Shown here: positions 9,185 to 59,711 of the stretch, in pieces
How positions within the stretch are numbered: the stretch's first letter is position 1
Layout of the letters: every line of letters begins with the position of its first letter
Source: Candidatus Uhrbacteria bacterium
GTDB taxonomy: Bacteria > Patescibacteriota > Patescibacteriia > UBA9934
Direction: 5' to 3'
Assembly: GCA_943358395.1 (NCBI GenBank)
Contig: CALRGY010000001.1
Location: 8,008-72,007, forward strand
DNA: 64,000 nucleotides
The notes under the pieces: generated by a model
What the model saw: the letters and a program-made list of their open reading frames with translations, nothing else
Databases searched by the model: none
Told to the model about the DNA's origin: nothing
Made by a program: the position numbers and the translations under genes

Positions 9185-9309
9185 TAGGACTGCAACATTT
9201 TCGACCAGTTTCGGTGCGCATCGAGCAAATTTCGTGAGACGTACTTCACGGTACGTTGAACGAATTTGCGATGATGCAAGCCGAAAATGGGCAAAATGCT
9301 GCAGTCCTA
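9185..9309. repeat. 125-bp palindromic dispersed element, copy 1
   Basis: Ends taggactgcaacatttt and aaaatgctgcagtccta; central cgtgagacgtacttcacggtacgttgaacg; starts immediately after the PBP2 stop codon. Confidence 0.85.
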
Positions 9310-9361
9310 CACGGTTGACCCTCATTGGTCGTCATGGGATACTGTTCGATGAACCCGCCGG

Positions 9362-9883
9362 ATGCATTCGGCGGAATTGTTTTTAGAGAATGCTGACATT
9401 CTCAACGTATTACGATTTCTTATGGACAATACACAAACATACATTTCTGCACTCGGATTACAAAAGATCAAAGACGAGCTTGTACACCGCATCAAAGTGT
9501 TGCGCCCAGAAATTGCTCAAAAGATTAGTGATGCAAAGGAAATGGGGGACTTGAGCGAAAACTTTGCATACCACGAGGCAAAGGAACAACAAGCACAAAA
9601 TGAAATGCGCATTGTTGATATTCAAGACATGGTTGTGAGTGCGGTGGTGGTAGAGGAAAAAATAGGCGGCGCCATTGGGCTTGGCTCTACATTCGTTGTG
9701 CGAGTGAACAATGCAGAAAAAACATACGAAATTGTGGGAGAGAACGAGGCAGACCCTATGGCAGGGAAAATTAGCAACATGTCGCCGCTCGGCAGTGCTT
9801 TCATGGGAAAGAAGATCGGTGACGCAGTGCATGCCGAAGTACCATCGGGAACTATCGAGTATAGTATTGTTGACGTGAAATAA
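9362..9883 (+). CDS. greA: transcription elongation factor GreA
   Basis: Coiled-coil N-terminal domain and FKBP-like C-terminal domain; the true start may be ATG 9422. Confidence 0.8.
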   Translation: MHSAELFLENADILNVLRFLMDNTQTYISALGLQKIKDELVHRIKVLRPEIAQKISDAKEMGDLSENFAYHEAKEQQAQNEMRIVDIQDMVVSAVVVEEKIGGAIGLGSTFVVRVNNAEKTYEIVGENEADPMAGKISNMSPLGSAFMGKKIGDAVHAEVPSGTIEYSIVDVK

Positions 9884-9893
9884 TGACTCACAT

Positions 9894-11387
9894 ATGACCA
9901 ATGAAGAAGTGGTACGGCGAGAACGATTAACGGCGATCGAGGCACGCGGCATTGATGCGTACCCTGCGGGAAGCACACGCACCGCAATGATCGCTGAAGT
10001 GCTTACAGCGTTCGATCAGCATCTTTCCGCAAGCGACACATGCACGATTGCCGGAAGAATTACGGCGATGCGCCATATTGGTGCCCTTTCTTTTGTGCGT
10101 ATTTTGGACGGCTCTGCACATATGCAGGCCGTTTTGCGTAAAGAAGACCTTGGTGAACAATATACATTTTGCGTGGATCATCTCGACGTCGGTGATATTG
10201 TTGAAGTGACAGGAATTGCGTACCTCACAAAAACTCAAGAGAAGTCGATTCTTGCTCAATCGGTTATTGTCGCCGCAAAAGCACTACAGCCGTTGCCGGA
10301 AAAGTGGCACGGACTTCAGGACGTAGAGATTCGCTATCGTCATCGAGAGCTTGACCTTATTACCAATCCAGAAGTGCGTGATCGTTTCGTGATGCGTTCA
10401 AAGTTCATTGCCGCAATGCGCCGGTTCCTTGACGATTCTGGCTACTTAGAAGTGGAAACGCCTATCCTTCAAGCTATTCCTGGCGGAGCAAGTGCGCGAC
10501 CGTTCATTACCCACCACAATGCACTCGATGCACAATTTTATTTACGGATTGCTACAGAACTCTATTTGAAACGTTTAGTCGTTGGTGGCATGGAAAAGGT
10601 GTACGAAATCGGGCGATGCTTCCGCAATGAAGGCATCGATTACTCCCACAATCCTGAATTCACGATGCTGGAGCTTTATTGCGCATACGCTAAAAAAGAA
10701 GAATTTATTACATTCAACGAAGAGATTCTCCGCAAGTCACTGCATGGAGCAACGGGATCGATGATTGTAACGATCGATGGAGTTGCTGTGGATTTTGCAC
10801 AGGCCTTTCCACGAATGACGTTCCGTGAATCTATTCTTCGTGCGTGCGACATCGACATCGACACATTGCACACCGAAGATGATGTGATGCGTGCTGCAAA
10901 AGATCGTGGGCTTTCCGTCGATTGTACTGGATGTCTTGGGTTCGGCGAATTCCTCGACGCGCTCTATAAAAAAACCGGTCGTGCTGCCATTACTACGCCA
11001 ACATGGATTTTCGACTATCCCGTTGAACTCAAGCCCCTTGCACGCCAGAATCCAGAAGATGCGTCAAAGAGCGCATGCGCACAGCTTGTTATTCTTGGTG
11101 CAGAAATCGTGAATCTCTATTATCACGAGCTGAATAATCCTATTGATCAGCGTGCGCGATTCGAGGTACAGGAATCGCTCCGTGAACAGGGAAGTGAAGA
11201 GGCGCAATTCATGGATGAAGACTTTTTGGCTGCGCTCGAGCACGGCATGCCACCAACCAGCGGAGTAGGGATCGGCATTGATCGCCTCATTGCGATTCTC
11301 ACTGGTGCGCCGAATTTGAAAGAGGTGATTGCGTTCCCTACGCTCAAGCCAAAAAACGAGCATGGCGGCGCTACCGATCAATCGTGA
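9894..11387 (+). CDS. lysS: lysyl-tRNA synthetase (class II)
   Basis: OB anticodon-binding domain, class II motifs FRNEGID and GIGIDRL. Confidence 0.92.
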   Translation: MTNEEVVRRERLTAIEARGIDAYPAGSTRTAMIAEVLTAFDQHLSASDTCTIAGRITAMRHIGALSFVRILDGSAHMQAVLRKEDLGEQYTFCVDHLDVGDIVEVTGIAYLTKTQEKSILAQSVIVAAKALQPLPEKWHGLQDVEIRYRHRELDLITNPEVRDRFVMRSKFIAAMRRFLDDSGYLEVETPILQAIPGGASARPFITHHNALDAQFYLRIATELYLKRLVVGGMEKVYEIGRCFRNEGIDYSHNPEFTMLELYCAYAKKEEFITFNEEILRKSLHGATGSMIVTIDGVAVDFAQAFPRMTFRESILRACDIDIDTLHTEDDVMRAAKDRGLSVDCTGCLGFGEFLDALYKKTGRAAITTPTWIFDYPVELKPLARQNPEDASKSACAQLVILGAEIVNLYYHELNNPIDQRARFEVQESLREQGSEEAQFMDEDFLAALEHGMPPTSGVGIGIDRLIAILTGAPNLKEVIAFPTLKPKNEHGGATDQS

Positions 11388-11806
11388 ATATAAATATGAC
11401 CACCGGTTTACTTTTTGGCACATTTGATGGTCTTCACGAAGGGCATATCGCTATGCTTACCGAGGCTCGAACACATGCACCGCGAATCATCATCGCCTTA
11501 CCAAAAGACACAAACGTTCTTGCCGCAAAAGGCCACCTTCCAATGTTTTCATGGAACGAACGTGCATCGGGATTACAGGAATCGGGACTCGTGCACGATA
11601 TTTACGCCGGCGATGACGTGCTCGGCGAGTATCATATCCTCGACCAGGTGAAGCCTGATGTCATCCTGCTCGGATACGATCAAACCGAGCTTTCTCTCAG
11701 CCTAAAGCAATACTTCGTTCTGCATCCAGAATCCACACTTCCGATGATTACTCTCGCCCCCCATCAGCCCGATCGCTATAAATCATCACTTTTAAACCCC
11801 GTATGA
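11384..11806 (+). CDS. HxGH cytidylyltransferase-like nucleotidyltransferase
   Basis: GTFDGLHEGH motif; 140 aa; overlaps both the lysS end and the serS start. Confidence 0.55.
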   Translation: MNINMTTGLLFGTFDGLHEGHIAMLTEARTHAPRIIIALPKDTNVLAAKGHLPMFSWNERASGLQESGLVHDIYAGDDVLGEYHILDQVKPDVILLGYDQTELSLSLKQYFVLHPESTLPMITLAPHQPDRYKSSLLNPV

Positions 11807-13065
11807 TCGACATCAAACTCCTCCGCGAACACCCTGAAGTCATCCGCAATGCCGCAAAGGCAAAAGGCGTCACCATCGACACCGATCGCATTCTCGAATT
11901 AGATCGCGGTGCGCGATTACTTCTTAGAGAAATCGAATCAACAAAGGCAAAGAAGAATGCGGCATCGGATGCTATCGCGAAGGCGAATCCAGAGGAACGA
12001 AAGGCGCTCATCGAGGCAATGCGTGCCGTGGACCAAGAATCTCAAGGGAAAGATGCGGAATACGCCGTAATTGATTCTGAGCTGCAAAGCCTGCTGCTTC
12101 GTATCCCTAATCCAGCACTTGCCGATGTCATCATCGGCGCATCGGATGAAGAAAACACTGTTCTTCGTACGGTTGGCGAGCCACCAAAGTTTGATTTCGA
12201 GCCTAAAGATCATCAAACACTCGGCGAGAACCTCGGTATTATCGACATGAAGCGTGCCGCAAAAGTGAGTGGCGCGCGGTTTGTCTATTACGTTGGCGAC
12301 GGGGCATTGCTTGAGCTGGCATTAGTCGATTTTGGCCTTCGCTTAGCCATGAAGCACGGTTTTATTCCCGTCACCGTTCCGCACCTCATTAACTCACGAT
12401 CGATGGCTGCCATGGGCTACCTTGAACATGGTGGACAGGATGAAATTTATTATCTTCAAAAAGACGATCTTTATCTCATCGGCACGTCAGAACAAGCTAT
12501 CGGTCCCATGCACATGGACGAAATTCTCGACGTTGCGAAGCTTCCACTTCGATATGTCGGTGTATCACCATGCTACCGCCGGGAATCGGGGAGCGCAGGA
12601 AAAGATACGAAGGGTGTGATTCGCGTTCACCAATTTACCAAGGTGGAAATGTTCGGCTTCTGTAAGGCGGAAGATTCTGTTGCAGAGCACGAAGCAATTC
12701 TGGCTATCGAAGAAGAGCTCCTCAAAGCCCTGGGTTTGCCCTATCACGTTCTCAATATTTGTACCGGTGACCTTGGTCTTCCTGCGGCAAAAAAGTGGGA
12801 CACCGAAGTATGGTTCCCGGCGCAGAATCGTTATCGAGAAGTCACGTCGACAAGCAACTGTACTGACTTCCAGGGTCGTCGCCTGAATACCCGATACCGA
12901 ACAGGGGAGGGAACTGAGGTGATTCACACCGTGAATGGCACCGCATTCTCTGGAAGACCAATCGCGGCGATTCTTGAAAACTTCCAAAATGCCGACGGCA
13001 GCGTAACCATTCCCGAAGTTCTTCGGCCATTCATGGGCGGAAAGGAACGCATTATTGCTGCGTAA
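11803..13065 (+). CDS. serS: seryl-tRNA synthetase
   Basis: N-terminal coiled-coil arm and class II core (RRESGSAGKDTKG, GTAFSGRPIAA). Confidence 0.92.
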   Translation: MIDIKLLREHPEVIRNAAKAKGVTIDTDRILELDRGARLLLREIESTKAKKNAASDAIAKANPEERKALIEAMRAVDQESQGKDAEYAVIDSELQSLLLRIPNPALADVIIGASDEENTVLRTVGEPPKFDFEPKDHQTLGENLGIIDMKRAAKVSGARFVYYVGDGALLELALVDFGLRLAMKHGFIPVTVPHLINSRSMAAMGYLEHGGQDEIYYLQKDDLYLIGTSEQAIGPMHMDEILDVAKLPLRYVGVSPCYRRESGSAGKDTKGVIRVHQFTKVEMFGFCKAEDSVAEHEAILAIEEELLKALGLPYHVLNICTGDLGLPAAKKWDTEVWFPAQNRYREVTSTSNCTDFQGRRLNTRYRTGEGTEVIHTVNGTAFSGRPIAAILENFQNADGSVTIPEVLRPFMGGKERIIAA

Positions 13066-13067
13066 AT

Positions 13068-14213
13068 ATGGCAGTACATGGGGCAAAAACATGGGTAGAA
13101 GTTTCGCGAAGCGCCATGGCGCAGAATATCGCGGCATTGCGAACATTCTTAAAACCGGAATCCGTGTTTTGCGCCGTTGTGAAGGCGAATGCCTATGGAT
13201 GCGGTGTACGCGAGGCATCAGGTATCGCCTCAGATTGCACCGTCGACACGTTTGCCGTTGATAGCATCGACGAGGCAGTCGTCCTTCGCGAAATATTGCC
13301 ACATGCAACGATCTTTATTTTGGGATATACCGTTCCCGAGAGACTATGCGATGTTGTGAGTATCGATGCCATTCAAACCGTATACGACACAGAAACCATT
13401 CTTGAAATCACGAAACACGCGCATCGGTTCAATAGGCCGGCGCGTGTTTCGTTGAAAGTTGAAACCGGTTTGCATCGGCAAGGCGCAACAGCGCGAGGGC
13501 TCACCGCAATGCTTGATGCGATTCGCGCCGCAGGGCAATCGGTTGTTGTTGAAGGAGTTGGCTCTCATTTTGCAAGTGCAGAGGAACCAACTGATCCTAT
13601 GAATACGTTTCAATTGGAGCATTTCGCTCACGCCATACACACGGTTCGCGCCGCAGGGCATACACCACGCTATGAACACATTGCCTGCTCTGCTGCAGGA
13701 ATTGCACACAGTGCCGCACAAGGAACGATGACCAGGTTTGGCATTGCGCTTTATGGGTTATGGTCGAGCAAGAATTTGAAACGTCATGTGATGCTTGGTC
13801 GTCAAAACATTGAATTGCATCCAGTGCTCAGCTGGAAAACACGTATCGCGCAAATCAAAGACATTCCAGCCGGTGCTGCAATTGGATACGGGGGAACGCA
13901 TGTAACCAATCGACCGATCCGCATCGCGGTGCTTCCGGTAGGGTATTATGATGGATACGATCGTGGGCTTTCAGGAAAAGGTGAAGTGCTCATTCGTGGG
14001 AAAAAGTGCGCAGTGCTTGGAAGGGTGTGTATGAATATGATTATGGTAGACGTTTCTGGAGTGCCTGCGCTTTCAGTGAATGACTGCGCAACACTCATCG
14101 GAAAAGACGGCATGCACACCGTTACGGCAGACGACATCGCCACCATACTCGGCACCATCAATTACGAGGTTGTTTCCCGCATCAATCCATTGTTGCCACG
14201 AGTGATATGCTAA
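13068..14213 (+). CDS. alr: alanine racemase
   Basis: PLP-site VVKANAYGCG and an alanine-racemase-type C-terminal domain. Confidence 0.85.
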   Translation: MAVHGAKTWVEVSRSAMAQNIAALRTFLKPESVFCAVVKANAYGCGVREASGIASDCTVDTFAVDSIDEAVVLREILPHATIFILGYTVPERLCDVVSIDAIQTVYDTETILEITKHAHRFNRPARVSLKVETGLHRQGATARGLTAMLDAIRAAGQSVVVEGVGSHFASAEEPTDPMNTFQLEHFAHAIHTVRAAGHTPRYEHIACSAAGIAHSAAQGTMTRFGIALYGLWSSKNLKRHVMLGRQNIELHPVLSWKTRIAQIKDIPAGAAIGYGGTHVTNRPIRIAVLPVGYYDGYDRGLSGKGEVLIRGKKCAVLGRVCMNMIMVDVSGVPALSVNDCATLIGKDGMHTVTADDIATILGTINYEVVSRINPLLPRVIC

Positions 14214-15088
14214 AAAAACAACGTGATTTTCTTCGGCTATGGCATGCGAAAGAGCACGGAAACGGCATTCGAAAAAACCCCTTCTTTTTTAGAGCACCTC
14301 CTAAAAAGTGGCTTATCATCACCGGTATCGTTCTTGGTATAGTAGGGATCATCGGCGGCTGTATTGGCACAACCTATCTTTCATATTTTCGCATAACAGG
14401 AATAACCGTACAGGGCGCAACCATCACCCGCGCTGAAGATATTCAACAGAACGCATGGGAAACGATCACCACTCACTCGTACCCCTTTATTGCAAAAGAA
14501 AACGTCTTTCTCATCCGTGTCCAACGTATCGAACAGGAGCTCATGAAACGTTTTGCTCTTGAATCAGCGGTAGTGAGCCGTTCCGGGCGCACGTTGAATA
14601 TTGCTCTGGTTGAAAAAGTAACCACTCTTGCTCTTCGCACACAAGAAAAAACCGTGTTCCTTGATCTCTCCGGAACATATATTCGAGATGCTACTGCAGA
14701 AGAATCCCGAGCAATTGATGTTCGCATCGGCACAGCCGTTCCCACAGAAGGGGAAGTGATCGCACCATTACATGCCGAAATGCCAATCATTCTTGATACG
14801 CAAACAGATCCAGCCACATCGCTCCCCATACAAAGCGTCGAACACATTCTTGCGCTCACATCATCACTGCATAATCAGGGAATAACCGTAAAGACATATA
14901 CGCTAAACGGAGTGCATGCTCCTTTTGTTCGCCTTGATACCAATCAGCCGTACAGTCTCTTCTTTGACCTCAACCGCCCCGTCAATGAACAGATCAGCGC
15001 ACTGACCACCATCACTTCCTCACCATCCTTCATTCCTCCCGCAGAATACATCGATCTCCGCTTTGGAGCGTATGTGTATATGAAATAG
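14207..15088 (+). CDS. FtsQ/DivIB-like cell-division protein (POTRA domain)
   Basis: Short cytoplasmic N-terminus, single TM helix and a POTRA-like segment ITGITVQG...; follows alr. Confidence 0.45.
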   Translation: MLKKQRDFLRLWHAKEHGNGIRKNPFFFRAPPKKWLIITGIVLGIVGIIGGCIGTTYLSYFRITGITVQGATITRAEDIQQNAWETITTHSYPFIAKENVFLIRVQRIEQELMKRFALESAVVSRSGRTLNIALVEKVTTLALRTQEKTVFLDLSGTYIRDATAEESRAIDVRIGTAVPTEGEVIAPLHAEMPIILDTQTDPATSLPIQSVEHILALTSSLHNQGITVKTYTLNGVHAPFVRLDTNQPYSLFFDLNRPVNEQISALTTITSSPSFIPPAEYIDLRFGAYVYMK

Positions 15089-15210
15089 GACTTCCTCATT
15101 TTGTCTATTTTCGACTCAGATCATCGGAAAATCGTTCAACGTACCATAAAGTACGTCTCACGAATTTTCCTCGATCTTCATCGAAACTAGCCTAAAATGA
15201 GAAAGTCCTA
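15086..15210. repeat. 125-bp palindromic dispersed element, copy 2
   Basis: Its first three bases TAG are the stop codon of the FtsQ-like gene; its right end aaaatgagaaagtccta creates the apparent MRKSY start of the next ORF. Confidence 0.85.
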
Positions 15211-16150: not shown

Positions 16151-16160
16151 TCATCTATAT

Positions 16161-16628: not shown

Positions 16629-16708
16629 AACTGGTCACAAACGAGAAACGTTCTAATAACAAATCCAATAACGCATCCTCGAGCAGAATCGATTGTGAGC
16701 GGAGAAGG

Positions 16709-18281: not shown

Positions 18282-18293
18282 ATAACAGACGCG

Positions 18294-21116: not shown

Positions 21117-21243
21117 TGTCGGACTTCCCCATTTTGCCCATTTTCGGCTTGCATCATCGGAAACTTCTTCAACGTACCAAGAAGTACGTCTCAGAAGATT
21201 TCCTCGACGCGCACCGAAACTGGTCGAAAATGAGAAAGTCCTA
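21117..21243. repeat. 125-bp palindromic dispersed element, copy 3 (inverted orientation)
   Basis: Ends gtcggacttccccatttt and aaaatgagaaagtccta; internal gtacgtctca; produces the artefactual N-terminal extension of the clpB ORF. Confidence 0.85.
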
Positions 21244-24588: not shown

Positions 24589-25296
24589 ATGTCTCTTGCA
24601 GAAGAAGCGATCCTCTTCGCAAAGCACAACAAAAAAGAAATCTCCCGCCGGCTGACGAGTCTGGAAGAATACCCACCCAGCGATTCACCCGTCACCATAT
24701 TCATGGCCGGTTCGCCAGGGGCAGGAAAAACAGAGTATTCAAAAAGTTTACTCGCCTACCTCATAAAAAACACAAGTGATCGACCTATTCGTATTGATAG
24801 CGACGAGCTTCGCGGGGAAATTCCCGGATACACAGGGGAAAATTCATCGGAAATGCAGGGGGCTGTCTCCATTCTCCTGAGCGAAATGTACGACCGTGCA
24901 TTAAAGAACCGACAAACCGCTATTATCGACGGGACGTTATCACATTACGGAAAGGCTAAAGAGAACATCGAACGGTCTCTCAAGCGCAATCGGCAAGTGC
25001 TTATTTTCTACATCTACCAGCATCCAGAAGTCGCATGGCAGTTTACCGTTGCACGAGAGCACATTGAGGGACGAAACATTCCAAAACGTGCGTTTATTGA
25101 AAAATTTCTCGGCTCAAAAGCAACCGTCAATCAGATTTATCGGGAATTCAGCGACCGCATAACGCTCTTCTTGGCAAGAAAAAACTTCCAAACGCACGCC
25201 ATTGAAACAGTAGAAATCGTGAGTCCTCAACATTCGGGATTGGACGCATATCTCCCGGAAACATATACTGAAGAGGAATTAGCAAAATTACTATGA
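24589..25296 (+). CDS. zeta-toxin-like P-loop kinase (Zeta_toxin/AAA_33 family)
   Basis: Walker A GSPGAGKTE with following DxD-type motifs; length and architecture resemble zeta/PezT UNAG-kinase toxins. Confidence 0.4.
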   Translation: MSLAEEAILFAKHNKKEISRRLTSLEEYPPSDSPVTIFMAGSPGAGKTEYSKSLLAYLIKNTSDRPIRIDSDELRGEIPGYTGENSSEMQGAVSILLSEMYDRALKNRQTAIIDGTLSHYGKAKENIERSLKRNRQVLIFYIYQHPEVAWQFTVAREHIEGRNIPKRAFIEKFLGSKATVNQIYREFSDRITLFLARKNFQTHAIETVEIVSPQHSGLDAYLPETYTEEELAKLL

Positions 25297-30240: not shown

Positions 30241-30364
30241 AGGACTTTCTCATTTTAGGCTAGTTTCGATGAAGATCGAGGAAAATTCGTGAGACGTACT
30301 TCATGGTACGTTGAACGATTTTCCGATGATCTGAGTCGAAAATAGACAAAATGAGGAAGGACTA
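30241..30364. repeat. 125-bp palindromic dispersed element, copy 4
   Basis: aggactttctcatttt...cgtgagacgtacttcatggtacgttgaacg...aaaatgaggaaggacta. Confidence 0.85.
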
Positions 30365-32918: not shown

Positions 32919-33085
32919 ATCGAGTTCATAAAGCATTGTTGGACTTGGCGACTCGGGTGCATGTTTTTCCGCTGTGCTCAAGGACGCCACGCTGCGACGT
33001 CTCGCTATCGCTCGACTGCAGCTGGGCATCCGGTGAGCTCGCTGCAAAACATGCACCCTCGTCCCCTAACGTCCAACACAGATAT

Positions 33086-39164: not shown

Positions 39165-39449
39165 GGCACTATATTACGCTCTTTTTTCTACAGATACAAC
39201 GTCTTTCCAACCCAAAAGTATTGATTTCTTGGCTAATATATGCTATTATTTCCGGTTCACTTTCTTCACCGTCGTATGACCAATCTCCAACCAAGCCTCG
39301 ATTATCGTATTGCCGCCGGTATAACCAAAATCCTCGTCGCACTGCTTTTAGCATTGAACATTGCCTCAGTAATCCCTGCCCGATAAGTGCCTGCCTGAAT
39401 CTGCCCTCATCGAATCACGATCCCGAATAAAGGATCGTGATTTTTTATG

Positions 39450-39574
39450 TAGGACTTTCTCATTTTAGGCTAGTTTCGATGAAGATCGAGGAAAATTCGT
39501 GAGACGTACTTCATGGTACGTTGAACGATTTTCTGATGATCTGAGTCGAAAATAGACAAAATGAGAACGTCCTA
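39450..39574. repeat. 125-bp palindromic dispersed element, copy 5
   Basis: Near-identical to copy 4; ends exactly at the stop codon of the DUF218 gene. Confidence 0.85.
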
Positions 39575-40279
39575 TTATTGACGAATCAACCCCGGATGAT
39601 CCGGCATCAATTCAGCGATCATGCCTGACGCTTGGCGATACCATTCAGCAACGGCATCGACGTGGGACATGCCAGAAGATTCAAGCGACCGAAGAAGGGC
39701 AAATTTTCTCTCGAAAAGCTCGTGATGTTTTGCGAGGCGATCGGGGGATTCAAGAGCCCAAAGTGATCCTTGAATCTCAACCTGCTCTTTGCGATCGATA
39801 ATCGCTTCATCCAGATAGCGATTCACTGAAACATCAAAATCAATCGGCTCAACAGTAATTGAACCCGAACCATCAAAAACAGCGGCAGAAACACGTTGAA
39901 TCCGTTGATCCCGCGTTGCTTCACAAAAGATTGTAACCGATTCTCCGTCGTCTTCTCTATCGATGATCTCCTTAGCGAACATAAGATTCTCTAGCGTTGA
40001 AAGCGATCGATCTTCAAGCGTAATCAACCAATCCTTACATCGATTCCCCATCACGGAGCGATCGACGAGCTTCTGCATATACTCACCGATGACTGCTGCC
40101 TCGGTTCCCTCATACGGCGGTGCGCAATTCGTTGGGCCGCCACAAGGGATGATCAACGCCTTTTCACCTTTAGCAGAGGCATAGATGCGATTAAACGCGA
40201 CGTGAAGGTACGTAAGATAGTTCTGATCCCGCTCAATGAATTCTGGAATGCCGTAGCCGGGAATGATGAAAACCTTCAT
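39575..40279 (-). CDS. DUF218 (YdcF/ElyC/SanA-like) protein
   Basis: VFIIPGYG, CGG and TLENL blocks; start at MKVFIIPG, overlapping the upstream stop as ATGA. Confidence 0.6.
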   Translation of the reverse strand: MKVFIIPGYGIPEFIERDQNYLTYLHVAFNRIYASAKGEKALIIPCGGPTNCAPPYEGTEAAVIGEYMQKLVDRSVMGNRCKDWLITLEDRSLSTLENLMFAKEIIDREDDGESVTIFCEATRDQRIQRVSAAVFDGSGSITVEPIDFDVSVNRYLDEAIIDRKEQVEIQGSLWALESPDRLAKHHELFERKFALLRSLESSGMSHVDAVAEWYRQASGMIAELMPDHPGLIRQ

Positions 40280-41633: not shown

Positions 41634-41758
41634 TAGGACTTTCTCATTTTAGACCAGTTTCGATGAAGATCGAGGAAATCGTCTGAGACGTACTTCATGG
41701 TACGTTGAAGACGTTTCCGATGATCTGAGTCGAAAATGGGCAAAATGAGGAAGTCCTA
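41634..41758. repeat. 125-bp palindromic dispersed element, copy 6
   Basis: taggactttctcattttagaccag...gagacgtacttcatggtacgttgaag...gaggaagtccta. Confidence 0.85.
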
Positions 41759-43693: not shown

Positions 43694-44314
43694 TTACCGC
43701 ATTGAGTAAAACTCGATAATGAGCTTTGGATCGTATGCTTCCTTCAAATCATCCCCCATTGGAAGACTCACCACTTTACCAACCAAATCGTCACGATGTA
43801 ACCAACCAGCAACACGATGCGTCTTCAAACGCTCTTCAAGATCTGTAAACACTTTCTTCTCTTTCTTGCTTGCCTTAATTTCAATCACGTCATTCACCTG
43901 CACAGTATACGATGGAATGTTTAATTTCTTTCCATTCACAAAGAACATGCAGTGGCTTACCATTTGACGCGCCTGAGGACGAGTCTTTGCAAAGCCAAGG
44001 CGATATACCGTGTTATCCAATCGCTGCTCAAGCAAACGACCAAGATTTTCCCCGGTGTTCCCTTCCATGCGTGTTGCCTTGACGAAATAATTACGGAACT
44101 GTCGCTCCATAATACCGTACAATCGCTTTGCCTTCTGCTTTTCGCGCAATTGAGTGCCGAAAACAGAAACTTTCGCTGGACGACCGCCCGCTTTTCCGTG
44201 AACGCCAGGAGCGTACGGACGCTTTTGCATGACCTTAAGCACGCTCGTAGATGCCGACAATGCGACACCCTCACGACGGCTCATCTTTCCCATTGGAATA
44301 AGAGTCTTTCCCAT
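43694..44314 (-). CDS. rpsD: 30S ribosomal protein S4
   Basis: S4 N-terminal region and the S4 RNA-binding domain. Confidence 0.92.
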   Translation of the reverse strand: MGKTLIPMGKMSRREGVALSASTSVLKVMQKRPYAPGVHGKAGGRPAKVSVFGTQLREKQKAKRLYGIMERQFRNYFVKATRMEGNTGENLGRLLEQRLDNTVYRLGFAKTRPQARQMVSHCMFFVNGKKLNIPSYTVQVNDVIEIKASKKEKKVFTDLEERLKTHRVAGWLHRDDLVGKVVSLPMGDDLKEAYDPKLIIEFYSMR

Positions 44315-45384: not shown

Positions 45385-45509
45385 TTAAACGGTTCCAGTT
45401 TAGGCGAGTTTCGATGCGCATCGAGCAAAGCTTCCGAGACGTACTTCACGGTACGTTGAGGAAGTTTGCGATGATGCAAGTCGAAAATCAACAAACTGGG
45501 GCCGTTTAA
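45385..45509. repeat. 125-bp palindromic dispersed element, copy 7 (divergent termini)
   Basis: Termini ttaaacggttccagttt and aaactggggccgtttaa around the conserved centre cgagacgtacttcacggtacgttgagg. Confidence 0.8.
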
Positions 45510-47744: not shown

Positions 47745-48600
47745 TGATGGGATGGAAGGGAATCGGAGGAAAAGTGTGTGAAAGTGAAGGGAGTCTTTGG
47801 AGGGGGTTGGGAAGAAGTGAGTCTTGGAATGGGCTGTGAACGGGGAGTCGGAGGGGGTGGGGCTTGCGTTTTCAAAAGGGGCATCCTACTAATGCAACTG
47901 AGTTGCATGTAGGGGATGGGATAGCGATTGGGATTCGATGAGGATCGATTGTGTTTATCGAGAATGATCGAGATTCTGATGGAGACGGTCGATGTGATGT
48001 TTCATAGGTTTTTTTGCGTACCATCGATCGTGTTGATCGATTTTCACCATCGGAATCTGACCATATGCTTTGAAAAAAGAGTGCTCTCGCTAACGCGAAT
48101 GATTCGCGATAAGGAAACGGTCATCGATATTCGGTGCCCCGATGAGGTACGGCGACAAGGCGTAGAATCGACGATTCATGATCGTGAGCATTACAGTCGT
48201 CTTTCGCTGATTTCACTGTTACGCCGTGTTCAGATGGAAAGTTTTTCAACCCTCAAAAGCGAGGGCGCCTTCACAAAACGCGATACCCAAGCTGCCGAAT
48301 ATACCCGTCGATAGCACCTATCGCATCACGTTCGCTTCCTAATCTCAAACCCATTCCAAAGATTCCCATCACTTCACGATCCCTCACCCTCTCCAACTCC
48401 CCCTTCCCACTTCGCTCTTCGAGCTTCGAGGGACAAGTGGCAGGAGGAGGGTTCTCATCCAACTCTCACAACCCACCCCAAAGACTCACATCACTTCCCA
48501 TTTCACGTTCCCGTCACCACATTCCCAACACCCTCCAAAGACTCACCTCACTTCCCATTCCCAACCCCTTCAAAAGATCACTCTCACGTCCCCTCATCCC
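47745..48600. repeat. 0.9-kb composite element A: G-rich tandem-repeat arm / ~400-bp non-coding core / C-rich arm
   Basis: G-arm 47750-47930 carries repeated gtgagtctttggaggggttggg units; the core begins ctaatgcaactgagttgcat and contains gcgaatgattcgc; the C-arm 48330-48600 is the inverted complement of the G-arm motifs; homologous but inverted relative to 56022-56950. Confidence 0.75.
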
Positions 48601-51976: not shown

Positions 51977-51997
51977 AGTAAAGAAATGAAAATCGTC

Positions 51998-52122
51998 TAG
52001 AAACAGATTATTTTCGACCAGTTTCGGTGCGCATCGAGGAAATGTCGTGAGACGTACTTCATGGTACGTTGAACGACTTTCCGATGATGCAAGCCGAAAA
52101 TGGGCAAAATAATCCGTTTCTA
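51998..52122. repeat. 125-bp palindromic dispersed element, copy 8
   Basis: Termini tagaaacagattatttt and aaaataatccgtttcta; the terminal cta (52120-52122) is the stop codon of pduL on the minus strand. Confidence 0.85.
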
Positions 52123-52719: not shown

Positions 52720-52727
52720 GGCATGGA

Positions 52728-53441: not shown

Positions 53442-53460
53442 AGCAACGTTGTGCATACTG

Positions 53461-53534
53461 TGCGTCTGGCGTGATTCGAACACACGACCTCTTCCTTCGG
53501 AGGGAAGCGCTCTATCCAGCTGAGCTACAAACGC
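53461..53534 (-). tRNA. tRNA-Arg (anticodon CCG)
   Basis: Reverse complement GCGTTTGTAGCTCAGCTGGATAGAGCGCTTCCCTCCGAAGGAAGAGGTCGTGTGTTCGAATCACGCCAGACGCA folds with a 7-bp acceptor stem, D-arm GCTC/GAGC, anticodon stem CTTCC/GGAAG with loop CTCCGAA, and a GTTCGAATC T-loop; CCA is not encoded. Confidence 0.85.
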
Positions 53535-53556
53535 ACGGTCGGCACAACGTCACAGG

Positions 53557-53681
53557 TAGGACTTCCTCATTTTGTCTATTTTCGACTCAGATCATCGGAA
53601 AATTGTTCAACGTACCAGGTAGTACGTCTCACGAATTTTCCTCGATCTTCATCGAAACTAGCCTAAAATGAGAAAGTCCTA
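53557..53681. repeat. 125-bp palindromic dispersed element, copy 9
   Basis: Near-identical to copy 2; its terminal cta (53679-53681) is the stop codon of the TrmH-like gene. Confidence 0.85.
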
Positions 53682-54116: not shown

Positions 54117-54119
54117 AAT

Positions 54120-54368: not shown

Positions 54369-54370
54369 AT

Positions 54371-54784: not shown

Positions 54785-54842
54785 TATATCTTATGTGAAC
54801 CATATCAAAAAAACCGCTTTTCGGCTATCCTCACTGCCATCT

Positions 54843-56021
54843 ATGAACACCCTTTGCCCAAAGCCTGATGTGTGCGGTTCGTGTGGTTGGAGCCATATTC
54901 CGTACGAAAAGCAGTTGCAGCAAAAGCTTTCAGACATTAATGGTTCATTTGCCATCAAAAAGCTTAAGCTCCACGTTGACGACATCTTCGCTTCCCCAAA
55001 AACGTCGCATTATCGCAATCGAATGGACTTTGTTATTAACTTCAAGGGCGAAATGGGGCTACGAGAAAAGGGAAAGTGGTGGAAGGTCATCGACGATCAT
55101 ACGTGCTTTTTGGGCGACGAAAAGATCGAAGCATTGTTCCCCATTGTTCGCGAATGGGTGCAGTCGTCTGGACTTTCATTCTTCGATCGGAAGTCCAACA
55201 TCGGTACCCTTCGCTACGCAGTGATTCGTTCAACAAGCATTGGCGAAACCATGATTATCATCGTCACCAGCGCGCCAAATGGTGAATCGCAAACTGGCGA
55301 GGGGAATGTTTCAATGATCGTAGAAACAAATGATGATACGGTGAAAATCGAGGCTGCACTCGCCGATCTTGCATCCAAGGCCAATACAACAACCCTTGTT
55401 TGGTCGATTAATCACACCATTTCCGACGTCTCCTTTGGTGATGATCTTCGCGTGATCAGTGGCGCAGGCGCGATCAACGAAATCATCGACGGAAAGAAAT
55501 TCCGTATTTCGCCCAACGCGTTCTTCCAAACAAATTCGTACGCTGCGCCGATGCTCCTCTCAACGGTACGCGAATTTGCTGGCGATCTTACGGGAAAAAC
55601 GCTTCTCGATTTGTACTGCGGCACCGGATTCTTTGCCGTGGCTCTTGCCGATGATGCCGCAAAAACCATCGGTGTCGAGCTCGTTCCTGATGCGATTCGC
55701 GACGCACGAGTCAATGCGGAGCTGAATGGAGGAGAGGTCACGTTCCATGACGCAAAGACGGAAAACTTCGACTGGATGGCGCTTGGTGCCGATGTCGTCA
55801 TTCTCGATCCCCCACGTTCCGGCATGCACGATAAAGCCCTTGCCGACGTCATTGCCGCAAAGCCCGCCCGTATTGTCTACATCTCCTGCAACTACAAAAA
55901 CTTCGCCCGCGAAATGGTAGAGCTTTCAAAATACTACACCGTCGAAGCCATCCGCGCCGTCGACATGTTCCCCCACACGCCACACGTGGAATTAGTAACG
56001 GCGTTGGTGTTGAAAAAGTGA
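54843..56021 (+). CDS. RlmD/TrmA-family (uracil-5)-RNA methyltransferase with N-terminal Fe-S Cys cluster
   Basis: CPKPDVCGSCGW...C cluster, FFQTN, SAM motif LDLYCGTGFFA and DPPRSG. Confidence 0.75.
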   Translation: MNTLCPKPDVCGSCGWSHIPYEKQLQQKLSDINGSFAIKKLKLHVDDIFASPKTSHYRNRMDFVINFKGEMGLREKGKWWKVIDDHTCFLGDEKIEALFPIVREWVQSSGLSFFDRKSNIGTLRYAVIRSTSIGETMIIIVTSAPNGESQTGEGNVSMIVETNDDTVKIEAALADLASKANTTTLVWSINHTISDVSFGDDLRVISGAGAINEIIDGKKFRISPNAFFQTNSYAAPMLLSTVREFAGDLTGKTLLDLYCGTGFFAVALADDAAKTIGVELVPDAIRDARVNAELNGGEVTFHDAKTENFDWMALGADVVILDPPRSGMHDKALADVIAAKPARIVYISCNYKNFAREMVELSKYYTVEAIRAVDMFPHTPHVELVTALVLKK

Positions 56022-56950
56022 CCTCTCCCCCATTTATGGGGGAGTCGGAGGGGGAGAGGGAAAGTGAAGTGAGTCTTTGGAGGGGTTAAGTGGTGACAGG
56101 AATCGGAGCAGCCAGATCCTGAGGCTCCGCCGAAGGACCCCGAACGAACCTACTCGTAAACAATTCGGGGCGTGAGGGATGGGAGTCTTGGAAGGGGTTG
56201 TGAGTCCGGACGTGAACCTGGACGTGAACTCTCCTCCATTTATGGGGGAGTTAGGAGGGGGCTGAATCGGAGGGGGTCTCATTTTGAAATGACACCCCCC
56301 CATTTTCGACCTTTTTCAACAGGACACTCTGCCGCGACGTGATCGTGAAATCGGCGAAAAGTGTCTTAAATGGGGACGCACGGAAATCATCAACGGCATA
56401 CGTCATCACTTACCCTGGATCGTTATCATCGGTATCGACCAACGGTTTCTTCTTGCGAATGATTCGCATTAGCAAGAAGCCTCTTTGGAAAACCACATAG
56501 TCAAATTCCGACCTCAAAAACTGATCACCTCAATCGGCTATACACAAAAGAATCAATAAAACATCACGTCGACTGTCTTCATCGGAATCCTCCTCACATA
56601 CGATGATAATAGTCCCTTCTCATCGAATCCCGATCATCATCCCGTCCTCTACATGCAACTCAGTTGCATTAGCAGGACCCCCCTTTTTAAATCGCAACCC
56701 CCTCTGGTTCAGATCCCTCCGATTCACAACCCTTTCAAAGACTCACCTCCCGAATCGTTTACCCGTCAGCTCATTTGAGGTCCTTCCCACTGCGCTAAAG
56801 CTTCGTGGGGACAGGTCGGCGTAGCCTCAGGATCTGGGACGCTCCGATTCCTGTTCTCCCTCCAACCCCATTCAAAGATCACCCTCCTCTCACCGCCTAC
56901 CCCCAACCCCTTCAAAGACTCCCCTCACTTTCGATTCTTCCGAGCCAGCG
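56022..56950. repeat. 0.9-kb composite element B (inverted copy of element A)
   Basis: G-arm 56022-56290; C-arm 56690-56950; the two arms are inverted repeats of each other (for example caggaatcggagcagccagatcctgaggctccgcc versus the reverse complement of ggcgtagcctcaggatctgggacgctccgattcctg); the core ends atgcaactcagttgcattag, the reverse complement of the start of core A; cores are roughly 70-80% identical in opposite orientation. Confidence 0.75.
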
Positions 56951-57260
56951 TCACGTGAAGCGTTGCGGCATTAAGCATGGTATTGAAACGTTCGTAATAA
57001 GGGGCATGATCTTTAGGATCAATGCCTTCTATTGTTTTCTGAAACGCTGCCCGCATAAAGTCATTTGCTCGACGAAAATCATGACCAGTGCGCTGGGCAC
57101 TGGAAACAACCTGCTCAAATCGACGAAAAAATATTTCCTCCACAAGAAAATCCTCCGCAGCCTGCATCATCGTCGGCGACTCTTTTGGAGTCAAAGCCTC
57201 AGAAAAAAATTCCTGCGAAGACGGAACACGCGAATCCTCCAATCGCCAAGGCTTTCCCAT
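56925..57260 (-). CDS. hypothetical protein (111 aa)
   Basis: ORF 3 nt downstream of the J-domain gene; no recognisable motif; its last codons run into the C-rich repeat arm. Confidence 0.35.
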   Translation of the reverse strand: MGKPWRLEDSRVPSSQEFFSEALTPKESPTMMQAAEDFLVEEIFFRRFEQVVSSAQRTGHDFRRANDFMRAAFQKTIEGIDPKDHAPYYERFNTMLNAATLHVTLARKNRK

Positions 57261-57262
57261 AT

Positions 57263-58060
57263 TTAATCGTCTTCACCAAACTCCCTCACAATCGCCCGCG
57301 CCAACATTGCTTTAAATTGCTCACGCAATGGTTCTCGAGATTTCACACTCATACCTTGAATGACCTGTTCAAACTTCCTCTGCACCTCAACGACTACTCC
57401 TATTCTGGCACCATAATTATTGCCCATGGCACGCATAAATATCTGAGCAAAAGCCTCTGGCTCAAGAAACGCTTCGACGTATTCCCGACAACACGTTTGC
57501 GCCAAATCTTCAAAACGGATCGAAAATGCTACCCGATCCCGGTACGGCACCCCCTCCAAATACGTCTCAAATTCGCCCCGTAACTTGTTCCTGGCATCAA
57601 GAGTGATGCCCTTACAGTCTTTCATCGCATCAGCAAACCGGGCAGAAAAGAAGGTGACATTCAAAAAGTTGCGCATTTGCTGTTCTTTTGGCGAAAGCGC
57701 ATCGATCCCCATCCGCTCGCGGGGTGGCGGAGGTTTCACCGCTTTCCTTGTACGAGAAACCGCCGGAGTCGTATTCTGAAGAGCATCATAAACACGTCGT
57801 TTCTTTTCATCACCGAGAACCTCATAAGCATCGGCAAACGCTCGAAATCGAGCCTCCGCCTCAGGATCATTCGGATGTCGATCGGGATGCGTTTCCATGA
57901 CCGCCTTTCTCCATGCACTTTTGATCGCTCGATCATCTGCGTCTTTTAATACGCCAAGCACAGCATAGTGATCAATCGGTGTATGCAATTCTACCGATGG
58001 CGCATTTCTTCCTCCTTCAAAACCTCTTCCCGATCGAGTCATATATTGCGACGTATTCAT
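57263..58060 (-). CDS. J-domain (DnaJ-like) protein
   Basis: J-domain with HPD motif (HYAVLGV...AWRKAVMETHPDRH...AYEVLGD...RRVYD); the C-terminal region is unrelated to DnaJ. Confidence 0.7.
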   Translation of the reverse strand: MNTSQYMTRSGRGFEGGRNAPSVELHTPIDHYAVLGVLKDADDRAIKSAWRKAVMETHPDRHPNDPEAEARFRAFADAYEVLGDEKKRRVYDALQNTTPAVSRTRKAVKPPPPRERMGIDALSPKEQQMRNFLNVTFFSARFADAMKDCKGITLDARNKLRGEFETYLEGVPYRDRVAFSIRFEDLAQTCCREYVEAFLEPEAFAQIFMRAMGNNYGARIGVVVEVQRKFEQVIQGMSVKSREPLREQFKAMLARAIVREFGEDD

Positions 58061-58135
58061 TGACCAAAACGCACTTTTCCGCTAACATAAGCCCATTATC
58101 TTTTGTTTCATCGTTCATTGCGATGAAGATCACCT

Positions 58136-58990
58136 ATGCTCAAGTCTGGAATGGTTGCGATTGTGGGACGTTCCAATGTGGGAAAATCCACGTTAATCAA
58201 TACGCTCGTTGGTACAAAGGTTGCGATTACCACACCAAAGCCACAAACAACTCGTAGACCTATACAGGGTATCATTACGCGCCAAGAGGGGCAGGTGGTG
58301 TTTGTGGATACTCCTGGCATCATGCAAAAGGCGCGCGACACATTGACGAATAAGCTCAATGCGTACGCCAAGGATTCGCTTCGTGACGTGAATGCTGTCA
58401 TGTACGTCGTCGATCCTACACGTCCCATCGGCGATGAAGAAAAGCAAGCGTTCCGACTCGTCGAAAAAATCACTACCCCAAAATTGCTCGTCATCAACAA
58501 AATCGACGACAAGGCGTCAAAAAACTTCATCGACTACTACCGCGATCTCGCAACGAAATTCGATGCATATGTGGAGGTATCGGCAATGACATCGAAAAAT
58601 ACCGATCTCATCGAGAAGTGGATTTGGGAACAGATGCCAGAAGGCGAATTTTTGTACCCTGAATTCCAACTGACCAGTATGGGCAACGAGGAATGGCTTG
58701 CGGAATTGATCCGTGAAAAACTCTTTCTCCGATTACGAGAAGAGGTTCCCTACTCAACCCACGTTGAAGTGAATAGCATCGATATTCAAGACAACGGCAC
58801 CGTGTTCGTGGACGCAACCATTTATACGCATTCCGAACGGTACAAGCCGATGATCATCGGTGCGGGCGGGCGGGGCATTAAAGAGATTGGTCAGTCGACG
58901 CGTCGGGAGCTGGAGACGGTGACGGGGAAGAAGTACTTTCTTCAGTTGCAGGTTGCGGTTGACTCTCGGTGGGTGGAGCGGATGGAGTAG
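58136..58990 (+). CDS. era: GTPase Era
   Basis: G1 GRSNVGKST, G3 DTPG, G4 NKID and a C-terminal KH domain. Confidence 0.88.
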   Translation: MLKSGMVAIVGRSNVGKSTLINTLVGTKVAITTPKPQTTRRPIQGIITRQEGQVVFVDTPGIMQKARDTLTNKLNAYAKDSLRDVNAVMYVVDPTRPIGDEEKQAFRLVEKITTPKLLVINKIDDKASKNFIDYYRDLATKFDAYVEVSAMTSKNTDLIEKWIWEQMPEGEFLYPEFQLTSMGNEEWLAELIREKLFLRLREEVPYSTHVEVNSIDIQDNGTVFVDATIYTHSERYKPMIIGAGGRGIKEIGQSTRRELETVTGKKYFLQLQVAVDSRWVERME

Positions 58991-59189
58991 GTTCAGCAGA
59001 ATCCGACTGAATAATATCGTAAATCGCCTGAACCTTTTCCATAGTCTTCTGGGCGCTTTCAATGGCTGCGGATATTTCCGCAGCTTTTGTTTTTACCGAA
59101 TCCGTCACCGCATGAATCGAAGCAACAGCATCATCCGTGCAGCCAGCACCGAGGAGAGTGAATAGAGTAATGATGAAAATGTATTTCAT
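58878..59189 (-). CDS. small lipoprotein candidate
   Basis: MKYIFIITLFTLLGAGC lipobox followed by a low-complexity P/S/T tail; overlaps the era 3' end by 112 bp convergently, so it is uncertain. Confidence 0.3.
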   Translation of the reverse strand: MKYIFIITLFTLLGAGCTDDAVASIHAVTDSVKTKAAEISAAIESAQKTMEKVQAIYDIIQSDSAEPTPSAPPTESQPQPATEESTSSPSPSPAPDASTDQSL

Positions 59190-59283
59190 AGTATTGCATC
59201 CCAGACCCTGAGCGCAGCGAAGGGTCTCGCATGGGACTACGGTATGCTCATTTGGGATCCTTCCTATCGTCAGGATCTGGGCT

Positions 59284-59574
59284 TCATGTTCTCGATTCTC
59301 CAATCCCCGCCACTTTCTCCCCCTTTGCCCAGGCCGTCACCGTTACCTCATCGCTGGAGCCACAGATAAAAGCTTTTGTTTCCGTGTTATAAAAAAATGG
59401 CACACCACCGCACAAACCATCATCAATAGCTTCAAGACGCTTGGCATTCTCCGCATTATTCCAAACCTCCAGCTTTTCAATGGTGATTCCGAGGTCGGAT
59501 TCGATCTTCTCGATCATCGGCTTCATTTCAACGCAGTGCGGACACGTGTCACCGTAGAATTCAAGGAGAGACAT
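59284..59574 (-). CDS. thioredoxin/glutaredoxin-like small redox protein
   Basis: CPHC active site in MSLLEFYGDTCPHCVEMKP; start taken at the internal ATG 59574 because the upstream codons lie in repeat copy 10. Confidence 0.65.
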   Translation of the reverse strand: MSLLEFYGDTCPHCVEMKPMIEKIESDLGITIEKLEVWNNAENAKRLEAIDDGLCGGVPFFYNTETKAFICGSSDEVTVTAWAKGEKVAGIGESRT

Positions 59575-59585
59575 AATAATTACAT

Positions 59586-59711
59586 TAAAGGTTTTTTCAT
59601 TTTGTCTCTTTTCGGCTTGCTGCGTCGCAAATTCGTTCAACGTACCGTTAAGTACGTCTCACGAACTTTGCTCCTTGCGCACCGAAAATAGCCTAAAATG
59701 AGAAAACCTCA
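59586..59711. repeat. 125-bp palindromic dispersed element, copy 10
   Basis: aggttttttcattttgtctcttttcggcttgc...cgttcaacgtaccgttaagtacgtctcacg...aaaatgagaaaacctca. Confidence 0.8.

Follow-up and report, generated by a model that had tools for sequence, protein, structure and literature searches.

An uncatalogued interspersed hairpin repeat with a conserved tip and covarying ends in Candidatus Uhrbacteria

ERIC elements (enterobacterial repetitive intergenic consensus, also IRU) have a conserved central inverted repeat. They are 127 bp long, form a long imperfect hairpin and are located between genes in transcribed regions, in both orientations and often touching stop codons, with an effect on mRNA for which orientation matters; they are restricted to enterobacteria and vibrios and are listed with a TA duplication (PMC2229807). 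Correia/NEMIS elements of Neisseria and the RPE (Rickettsia palindromic elements) are hairpin repeats of 100–155 bp in compact or host-associated genomes, where they are co-transcribed with their neighbours; for Correia elements, which have fixed terminal repeats of 24–26 bp and a TA duplication, RNase III has been proposed to process the hairpin, while RPEs are found also beside or inside RNA genes, and often in frame inside genes (PMC2229807). REPINs are non-autonomous hairpin repeats in which two conserved REP (repetitive extragenic palindrome) ends surround a variable spacer, with compensated stem changes, a proposed single-stranded intermediate and an enzyme encoded once elsewhere (PMC3116915). 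In this study we analysed a stretch of 64,000 nt from Candidatus Uhrbacteria bacterium (GCA_943358395.1, contig CALRGY010000001.1, positions 8,008 to 72,007; the whole stretch is referred to as the window), in which ten copies of an imperfect hairpin of approx. 125 nt are dispersed, together with the relatives of this element in other genomes.

Genomes of the Candidate Phyla Radiation (CPR, Patescibacteria) are about 1 Mb in size and have almost no spare DNA. Despite such compactness, the element is located between essential genes, within operons for ribosomal proteins and immediately beside tRNA genes. With its ten window copies it represents a family of interspersed hairpins of ~125 nt that has not been catalogued and that is abundant in Candidatus Uhrbacteria and the CPR and is found also in metagenome-assembled genomes (MAGs) labelled as other phyla. 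New here are the inverse conservation (the centre is fixed and the ends are free), the tip common across phyla, the intrinsic strand asymmetry and the polarity rule at tRNA genes; the cross-phylum spread with an invariant tip, the asymmetry and the strict polarity were not visible to an earlier reading of the window made from its letters (the sequence-only reading). The element is missing from Rfam and from repeat libraries, and it can break MAG assemblies and create false extensions of open reading frames (ORFs) as well as false calls of stop and start codons.

Fold, covariation and strand asymmetry

The repeat is present in exactly ten window copies, approx. one per 6 kb and in both orientations (c1 and c4–c8 on the + strand; c2, c3, c9 and c10 on the − strand), all of them between (housekeeping) genes and none inside a gene. 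These are the ten that the sequence-only reading had listed, and repeat grouping, an exact core and a covariance model all return them. The grouping gave two direct-repeat families that are mutually inverted (+ and −), and the 24-nt core GAGACGTACTnnnnGGTACGTTGA is exact in 10/10 copies, with 0 expected in shuffles; the longer, 32-nt centre that had been proposed as conserved in every copy matches only 7 copies at ≤3 mismatches, so the claim of a conserved centre stands for the core. The covariance model (R1, built from 57 relatives) scanned over the window finds exactly these ten copies with 116–139 bits on the sense strand, which is the better-scoring and better-folding strand (reading GAGACG...), against 42–58 bits on their opposite strand and only 18.5 bits for the next match in the window. 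In an alignment that includes the flanks, homology begins and ends sharply at ~125 nt, and the element occupies ~2% of the window. Each copy folds as a single long hairpin, as the earlier reading held, with a minimum free energy (MFE) of −52 to −70 kcal/mol and z of −7 to −12, whereas the complementary strand of the ten copies folds consistently worse (−39 to −61 kcal/mol).

All collected copies were divided into two groups, the U-type with window-like arms (57 copies at first) and the X-type with other arms (38 copies), and covariation was determined on the 57 U-type copies, whose alignment is virtually ungapped. Paired cells make up 95.3% of this alignment, compared with 78.4% in shuffles and 34–45% when the partners are slid, and 36/52 pairs show double changes, with 522 double-changed cells observed (159 in shuffles, 63–116 with slid partners). 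Observed values were reached by 0/500 shuffles, and chance is excluded as the source of the pattern. Covariation is present in every stem, termini included: the terminal pairs 2-13/115-126 have 4–24 double changes among the 57 copies, and even the terminal TA covaries as a base pair (UA 25, AU 12, GC 9, CG 3). Since the stem variation is compensatory, selection acts on the folded structure and not on a fixed terminal repeat, which the sequence-only reading had argued from the ten copies and which the wider set, with compensatory changes between the arms throughout, supports more strongly than had been claimed. Its related statement, that the termini differ between copies yet remain complementary within each, holds by alignment and covariation except at c4, where the terminal stem is partly broken (GAGGAC...GGACTA). 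The mixing of arm sub-types between copies is also real, and it may partly reflect replacement of a contiguous central segment carrying both sides of the inner stems.

The tip is made up of a 4-nt loop on a stem of 8 bp, two of whose pairs are fixed G·U wobbles, and of a tandem G·A/G·A internal loop. All eight pairs are invariant in the 57 copies; of the two wobbles, one (G·U) is the basal pair of the tip stem and the other (U·G) is the closing pair of the loop. In the numbering of the alignment, columns 53-62 and 67-76 are invariant and the ends are variable. The whole stem is ~52 bp, with internal loops of 1–2 nt, and its unpaired columns are almost purely G/A (G53A54/G75A76 beside the tip, G33·A96 together with either C34·A95 or A34·G95, A41 vs G87A88, and G25·A104). 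Among the U-type mismatches, purine-purine cells outnumber pyrimidine-pyrimidine ones (89 vs 19), and G·U wobbles outnumber A·C (154 vs 31). As the working form, RNA and single-stranded DNA both come into question; the tandem G·A loops and the invariable G·U pairs tilt towards RNA.

The asymmetry between the strands extends beyond the window. The sense strand folds better in 36/37 non-Uhrbacteria (X-type) copies, by 12.5 kcal/mol on average; in the window, R1 scores the sense strand ~80 bits above the antisense. The ratio G·U:A·C is 55:14 where the host transcribes the sense strand and 57:8 where it transcribes the antisense; because the asymmetry is the same whichever strand is transcribed, it is intrinsic to the element. 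When the X-type copies are aligned by fitting to the model, 86% of cells are paired (54% in shuffles) and 44/44 pairs outside the tip covary. Length is nearly constant, with R1 matches of 127–129 nt for the U-type and mostly 123–130 nt for the X-type; a family member of 182 nt (locus L050, 6923-7104, 88 bits), in which either ~54 nt are inserted internally or the left arm is disrupted, is an exception. Concerning coding potential, each of the three sense frames is interrupted by stops in most copies and the right arm reads GAGGAAG (Shine-Dalgarno-like), while antisense frames are often open (14–26/57 copies), and the in-frame ATG extensions that had already been called spurious are best read as incidental products of these open frames.

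Distribution, insertion sites and placement

A scan with the 24-nt core over one genome per GTDB species matched at least 81 stretches, and the same scan of metagenomes added 78. No match to the core was found in viral contigs, and blastn gave no match to the element in plasmids, in phages or (word size 11) in 5,426 complete E. coli genomes, which carry ERIC and REP. With Rfam 15, tRNA is the sole family scoring at or above the gathering threshold in the window; the best match on the element itself is an archaeal C/D-box RNA (12 bits, E=4.2), and no match on the element was obtained in eight loci from other phyla. In the literature on CPR repeats we found no description of such an element. The statement of the sequence-only reading that the repeat fits no recognised element is thus borne out for Rfam, for E. 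coli, plasmids and phages, and for the CGTC/GTAG definition of REP.

Carriers include several Candidatus Uhrbacteria MAGs with many copies each, of which two loci are syntenic with the window at 70–78% identity, and further Patescibacteria (Parcubacteria, Saccharibacteria, Kaiserbacteria and Peribacteria); by MAG label, the element is present also in Nitrospirales, Syntrophales/Deltaproteobacteria, Acidobacteriota, Bacillota, Methylococcaceae and Gammaproteobacteria. The core always caps an imperfect hairpin of ~125 nt, while the arms differ completely between lineages. R1, although built from the U-type only, detects X-type copies at 30–71 bits, on the sense strand only, and finds additional copies with slightly different, compensated tips (e.g., GAGCCGTAC..GTACGGAGA). 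In other CPR classes the X-type copies reach two or three per 8 kb. One Uhrbacteria locus (L081, 4040-4830) holds both types together, in the order element, tRNA-Ala, element, parS, X-type element, tRNA-Arg, element; nearly every spacer is occupied, the X-type element carries a compensated variant tip, and a perfect parS consensus, TGTTTCACGTGAAACA, lies between the elements (4426-4441).

Transfer RNA genes were called with ARAGORN on all loci, and the sense 3′ end of the element faces the tRNA in 27/27 adjacencies (20/20 in the first sample and 7/7 in an independent metagenome sample), so that elements upstream of a tRNA are sense (19/19) and those downstream are antisense (8/8). The gaps are 0–10 nt, except for 22 nt at c9, and the junctions lie 0–3 nt after the encoded CCA or 0–8 nt before tRNA position +1; the only tRNAs near a sense 5′ end are those of a second, back-to-back element (tRNA, element ... 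element, tRNA). Several leader copies lie downstream of recognisable −35/−10 boxes, at variable distance, and one copy lies in a 16S-tRNA-Ile spacer, which makes these copies part of precursor transcripts. The encoded CCA was considered as a retro-signature and is uninformative, since nearly all tRNA genes of these genomes encode it; the tRNA-Arg of the window (53461-53534, −) is without an encoded CCA, while nearly all tRNA genes of the related loci have one.

Protein-coding genes show the same tendency. A tight convergent stop is found at the sense 3′ end in 30 X-type cases and at the 5′ end in 7, the corresponding U-type counts being 17 and 12, and start codons (gene starts were inferred mechanically) lie 0–13 nt from the sense 3′ end in 17 copies and mostly 8–24 nt from the 5′ end. 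Within the window, orientation relative to the flanking genes is mixed. The sense 5′ flank is looser and more AT-rich (0.62 vs 0.50), with a left-flank consensus that spells TGATATTAT; a promoter belonging to the element was considered there and rejected, as −10-like hexamers have no positional peak and a sigma-70 scan gave nothing at the copies. An intrinsic terminator was likewise rejected, as no U-tract follows the hairpin of the window type in either direction. The junctions have no conserved flanking motif and no conserved tetranucleotide target.

Filled and empty sites were seen in at least eight syntenic comparisons. The sites of c8 and c9 are empty in the syntenic locus L078; conversely, L078 carries a copy on the far side of the same tRNA, at a position that is unoccupied in the window. 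Six more filled/empty pairs occur among the loci. The empty sites are without the whole hairpin, including its copy-specific terminal stem, and no palindrome pre-exists, which led us to reject a pre-existing palindrome or terminator, or an inverted target duplication, as the source of the complementary ends. Canonical copies have TA at both ends and variants have GA...TC and the like; as these terminal dinucleotides change together like paired bases and do not form a direct repeat, no target duplication is seen, in syntenic sites whose spacers are too diverged for an exact junction (flank identity 65–88%). The empty-site comparison proposed by the sequence-only reading yielded its empty sites, while the TA it had suggested, with a question mark, as a target duplication behaves as a covarying pair. 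Near-identical empty sites (≥85% identity in both flanks) were sought among 160 sequences (159 loci and the window), and only the already known L015 pairs came up.

Copies which occupy the same site in different genomes (c7/L012 between infA and rpmJ; L052/L061; L068/L080; L044/L029; L001/L005/L075) differ by 6–16 compensated pairs and 2–5 single-side changes. Between c7 and L012, the infA stop has changed from TAA to TGA and is matched by A to G in the opposite arm; since the terminal stem of this pair is unique to its site, this change from A-T to G-C is not explicable by conversion from other copies. If the two sides changed independently, ~15 single-side and <1 compensated changes would be estimated at ~18% divergence, while 3 and 6 were observed.

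The ten copies in the window and their neighbours

The stop codons that the sequence-only reading had assigned to the termini of the element (FtsQ-like, PduL and TrmH-like genes), or had placed at the edges of the first and fifth copies, are all found where it saw them. Copy c1 (9185..9309, +, 138 bits) abuts the PBP2 stop (9182-9184) with its sense 5′ end, GreA starts 52 nt past its 3′ end, and its terminal stem is a variant (TAGGACTGCAAC/GCTGCAGTCCTA). The TAG that ends the FtsQ-like ORF (15086-15088) is provided by the sense 3′ end of c2 (15086..15210, −, 135.7 bits), and the DHH gene follows at the other end of this copy. Copy c3 (21117..21243, −, 134.5 bits) lies just upstream of ClpB, whose mechanically called ORF is open through the whole element, and c4 (30241..30364, +, 125.3 bits), with the broken terminal stem described above, is located between a 540-aa ORF for which Pfam gave no match and a LigB-like gene. 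Copy c5 (39450..39574, +, 130.1 bits) abuts the convergent DUF218 stop (39575-39577) with its sense 3′ end; a terminator-like hairpin with a T-run (39412-39443, +) ends 6 nt before this copy and is the sole clear match to an intrinsic terminator beside any of the ten. Copy c6 (41634..41758, +, 139.2 bits) is 46 nt downstream of the convergent gene of ribosomal protein S9, while c7 (45385..45509, +, 132.4 bits) lies between infA and rpmJ and overlaps the infA stop (45506-45508) with its sense 3′ end. The two copies whose sites are empty in L078 are c8 (51998..52122, +, 134 bits), the sense 3′ end of which supplies the PduL stop (52120-52122), and c9 (53557..53681, −, 129.6 bits), the sense 5′ end of which supplies the SpoU/TrmH-like stop (53679-53681) and the sense 3′ end of which is 22 nt upstream of the tRNA-Arg gene mentioned above (53461-53534, −). 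The most diverged copy, c10 (59586..59711, −, 116.2 bits), lies 4 nt after the HhH-GPD stop, with a thioredoxin-like ORF past its sense 3′ end.

Replication-strand bias was tried as an account of these orientations and rejected, since they do not follow the GC-skew switch near 12 kb. The cumulative GC skew peaks at ~12 kb and the gene strand switches at ~34 kb, and the element orientation follows neither. The only further R1 match in the window (18.5 bits, E 0.03) is a hairpin of ~105 nt between priA and def (32955-33057, +; MFE −60.8 kcal/mol, z −6.1), which has a CAAGG motif in its 5′ arm, as in X-type arms, and a different tip; it is possibly a family member that has decayed, or a distant relative.

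All identifiable ORFs of the window are of the housekeeping kind: AddA-like helicase-nuclease, MreB/MreC, PBP2, GreA, aminoacyl-tRNA synthetases, Alr, ClpB, PriA, Def, Fmt, cell-envelope genes, S9, S13, L36, IF-1, MurJ, PduL, SpoU/TrmH methylase, Era-like GTPase, DnaJ, HhH-GPD glycosylase, beta-CASP RNase and Dus. No transposase, reverse transcriptase or integrase was found in the window. When ORFs within 2.5 kb of 97 copies were clustered, no recurring neighbour protein family was obtained, only housekeeping synteny, and the single cluster from eight loci appears to be the element's own antisense translation. The pair nusB-rnc adjoins a copy in four CPR lineages, with inconsistent position and orientation.

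Several other features of the window were recorded. A second repeat family consists of 30–37-nt purine-rich units (pyrimidine-rich on the other strand), e.g., GTGAAGGGAGTCTTTGGAGGGGGTTGGGAA, at 4590-4632, 43741-43774, 47745-47860, 48344-48590, 56018-56100 and 56716-56936; its units bracket two regions of ~850 bp that are mutually 74% complementary, with inner ORFs without a Pfam match, and a large inverted pair is present at 47859-48071 / 56490-56702. Hairpins with G/C runs, CCCCTCC..CCCCCTTTGCAGGGGGAGGG, occur four times (56018-56054, 56224-56260, 59932-59980 and 60709-60757), two of them flanking the HhH-GPD region beside c10. Direct repeats lie at 25558-25610/27226-27278 (53 nt, 96%), 25749-25797/27329-27377 and 27536-27632/27974-28070; the 53-nt segments are located upstream of two ORFs that have internal Cys/Asp-rich repeats and no match in Pfam, which suggests a duplicated gene pair with a shared leader. 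A gene of the zeta-toxin family (24589-25296, +, Pfam E 1.7e-36) stands among the housekeeping genes.

Possible mechanisms and comparison with known systems

The reading we favour, and which we hold with moderate confidence, is that the element is a non-autonomous, ERIC/REPIN-like mobile hairpin, recognised through its tip as a folded single strand, with ends that are set by their distance from the tip. An enzyme encoded elsewhere in the genome would recognise the near-invariant tip, and the stem of constant length (~52 bp) would serve as a ruler that brings both ends together; with the stem as a ruler, its sequence, termini included, would need only to pair and would be free to covary. Integration would be directional, with the sense 3′ end landing on a gene boundary, such as the 5′ or 3′ end of a tRNA or a stop or start codon. 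After insertion into very short spacers, purifying selection would keep the pairing, probably because the insert must fold away in the operon transcript or provide it with a hairpin for processing or stability. If this is right, the element is a rare dispersed repeat with the full signature of a structured nucleic acid (covariation, G·A loops, wobbles and fixed length) across phyla, the 24-nt tip is a handle for finding the enzyme, and the 27/27 tRNA adjacencies at one end are a clean, testable rule.

Several points weigh against this reading. No mobilising enzyme was found in the window or the flanks, and a short and a zero target duplication are both compatible with the filled/empty pairs at 65–88% flank identity. 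The polarity could result from selection after random insertion instead of directional integration, and some of the inner-stem covariation could be conversion of a contiguous central segment by other copies. Some non-CPR MAG labels may be binning or labelling errors (e.g., a 'Gammaproteobacteria' MAG with Uhrbacteria-type copies), which makes the breadth outside the CPR less certain, and since the cross-phylum search demanded an exact tip, the 'invariance' of the tip is partly by construction, as variants exist. Lastly, that paired copies are kept at the same site over long times is no less compatible with a host function than with a selfish element.

Such a host function is the first alternative, which we consider unlikely: an intercistronic RNA hairpin for processing or stability (e.g., an RNase III site at which tRNAs and cistrons are cut apart, or a 3′ protective hairpin), comparable to the RNase III sites of phage T7 and to the orientation-dependent effect of ERIC on mRNA, for which spreading is secondary. 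Pairing at the same site is kept where the flanking genes are only 65–88% identical, the copies lie in operons of highly expressed genes (infA-rpmJ, S9, tRNAs), in pre-tRNA leaders after −35/−10 boxes and in the 16S-tRNA-Ile spacer, and the tRNA rule (leaders sense 19/19, trailers antisense 8/8) is strict. The GAGGAAG of the right arm with start codons 0–13 nt beyond it in 17 copies, the stops in three frames of the sense strand in most copies, and nusB-rnc next to a copy in four CPR lineages are in line with it. However, the strand-specific features belong to one and the same strand of the element regardless of which strand is present in the host mRNA, so they are not tuned to the host transcript; occupancy varies among close relatives, no U-tract or promoter stands at a fixed position, and the nusB-rnc copies vary in position and orientation.

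We assign a similarly low probability to a structured mobile element with an unrecognised mechanism, in which an enzyme common to the phyla would read only the ultra-conserved apical motif and the 3′ end would be joined to gene or RNA boundaries, possibly via RNA. If true, this would mean transposon ends in bacteria which are defined by structure and not by sequence, and a major shaper of CPR intergenic space.

It seems improbable that the element is an ordinary miniature inverted-repeat transposable element (MITE) at the DNA level, i.e., a deletion derivative of an insertion sequence (IS; e.g., IS630/Tc1-like with a TA target) whose terminal repeats are bound by transposase, the hairpin being a by-product. 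By the description of bacterial MITEs (PMC2229807), the element is <200 bp, non-coding, multi-copy and intergenic with a long stem-loop, and its size, A+T bias, intergenic site and both orientations match the MITE table of the same source; the commonest variant has TA at its start and end, and presence/absence polymorphism exists among related genomes. The fixed, shared terminal inverted repeats of a MITE are nevertheless missing here, since the repeats are inverted within a copy and different between copies; within a single genome the outermost 15 bp vary between copies, which leaves no shared repeat for a transposase to bind. The dinucleotides at the ends covary as a pair instead of forming a direct repeat, it is the centre and not the ends that is conserved, the conserved strand-specific mismatches (G·A loops, G·U) are not predicted by double-stranded recognition, and the orientation rule at tRNA genes is strict. 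The window and ~1.1 Mb of flanks yielded neither an IS with such ends nor split tips on either side of an ORF.

Equally improbable is a REP/REPIN-type element moved as single-stranded DNA by an HUH tyrosine transposase of the RAYT (REP-associated tyrosine transposase) or IS200-IS605 type. IS200/IS605 elements share with our element the strand-specific hairpin, the lack of a visible target duplication and the polar placement. These traits, together with compensated stem changes, are described for REPINs as well (PMC3116915), but the architecture here is inverted (centre conserved, ends variable), neither a GTAG nor a CGTC tag with the stem features of REP is present, and the junction has no conserved tetranucleotide target. 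Searches by tblastn with approximate IS200, IS608 and RAYT queries returned nothing in the window and 159 loci, which is weak evidence, as the gene could lie elsewhere in the genome.

Finally, a spread like that of short interspersed nuclear elements, in which the sense RNA is reverse-transcribed from its 3′ end and primed by, or template-switched to, abundant RNA ends or nicks at gene edges, would agree with a junction that invariably involves the sense 3′ end and falls on positions matching RNA ends (tRNA CCA, position +1), with the RNA-typical fixed G·U and tandem G·A, and with the looser, more AT-rich 5′ flank, but is very unlikely, since no reverse transcriptase gene is seen in the window or near copies, the CCA encoded in nearly all tRNA genes leaves no retro-signature readable, the hairpins are full-length everywhere without 5′-truncated copies or A-tails, and the 5′ junction would require a second, unexplained step.

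Taken together, the data argue against a terminal-repeat MITE, a defined REP/REPIN, an attC site, a TIGR array and any Rfam family. An attC site is recognised by the structure of one folded strand, and attC sites are imperfect palindromes of 57–141 bp directly after the stop of the upstream ORF. They have conserved ends (RYYYAAC / GTTRRRY) and a variable centre, and they stand in same-orientation cassette arrays beside an integrase. The likeness to our element, structure on one strand and a stop-adjacent imperfect palindrome, is an analogy only, as here the centre is conserved and the ends are variable, the copies are spread between housekeeping genes in either orientation, and their neighbourhood has no integrase. 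A TIGR-Tas (tandem interspaced guide RNA) or box C/D guide was suggested by the 12-bit Rfam match and by GAUGA/CUGA strings; TIGR-Tas systems have tandem units with two loop spacers of 8–12 nt, box C/D motifs and an adjacent Tas (Nop-domain) gene (PMC12045711), whereas our units are dispersed, with loops of 1–2 nt and no Tas-like neighbour, and this candidate was rejected.

REP was defined for the comparison as a 20–40-bp palindrome tagged GTAG or CGTC, with CGTC units having an 8–9-bp stem that starts with A-T and a CCA tail. The tip of our element has GACG but an ACGTAC stem and no CCA tail, and it is a 125-nt unit with a single central hairpin, so a CGTC-tagged REP was rejected. Like REPINs, the element forms hairpins, is read as non-autonomous and shows compensated stem changes; unlike them, its middle is conserved and its ends are variable, it has no GTAG/CGTC tag, and no RAYT was detected with the approximate queries in the window and loci. 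With Correia and RPE elements it shares a hairpin repeat of similar size in a compact genome and a position beside RNA genes, but its ends are not fixed and none of the ten copies is inside a gene. It is like ERIC in its near-same size, its single long hairpin, its intergenic position in both orientations and its contact with stop codons, and unlike ERIC in that there is no sequence similarity, different phyla have the tip in common, each copy has termini of its own, a duplication is not seen and polarity holds at tRNA genes. In its behaviour the element is closest to ERIC, Correia and RPE elements and REPINs, and by sequence or defining features it is a member of none of them.

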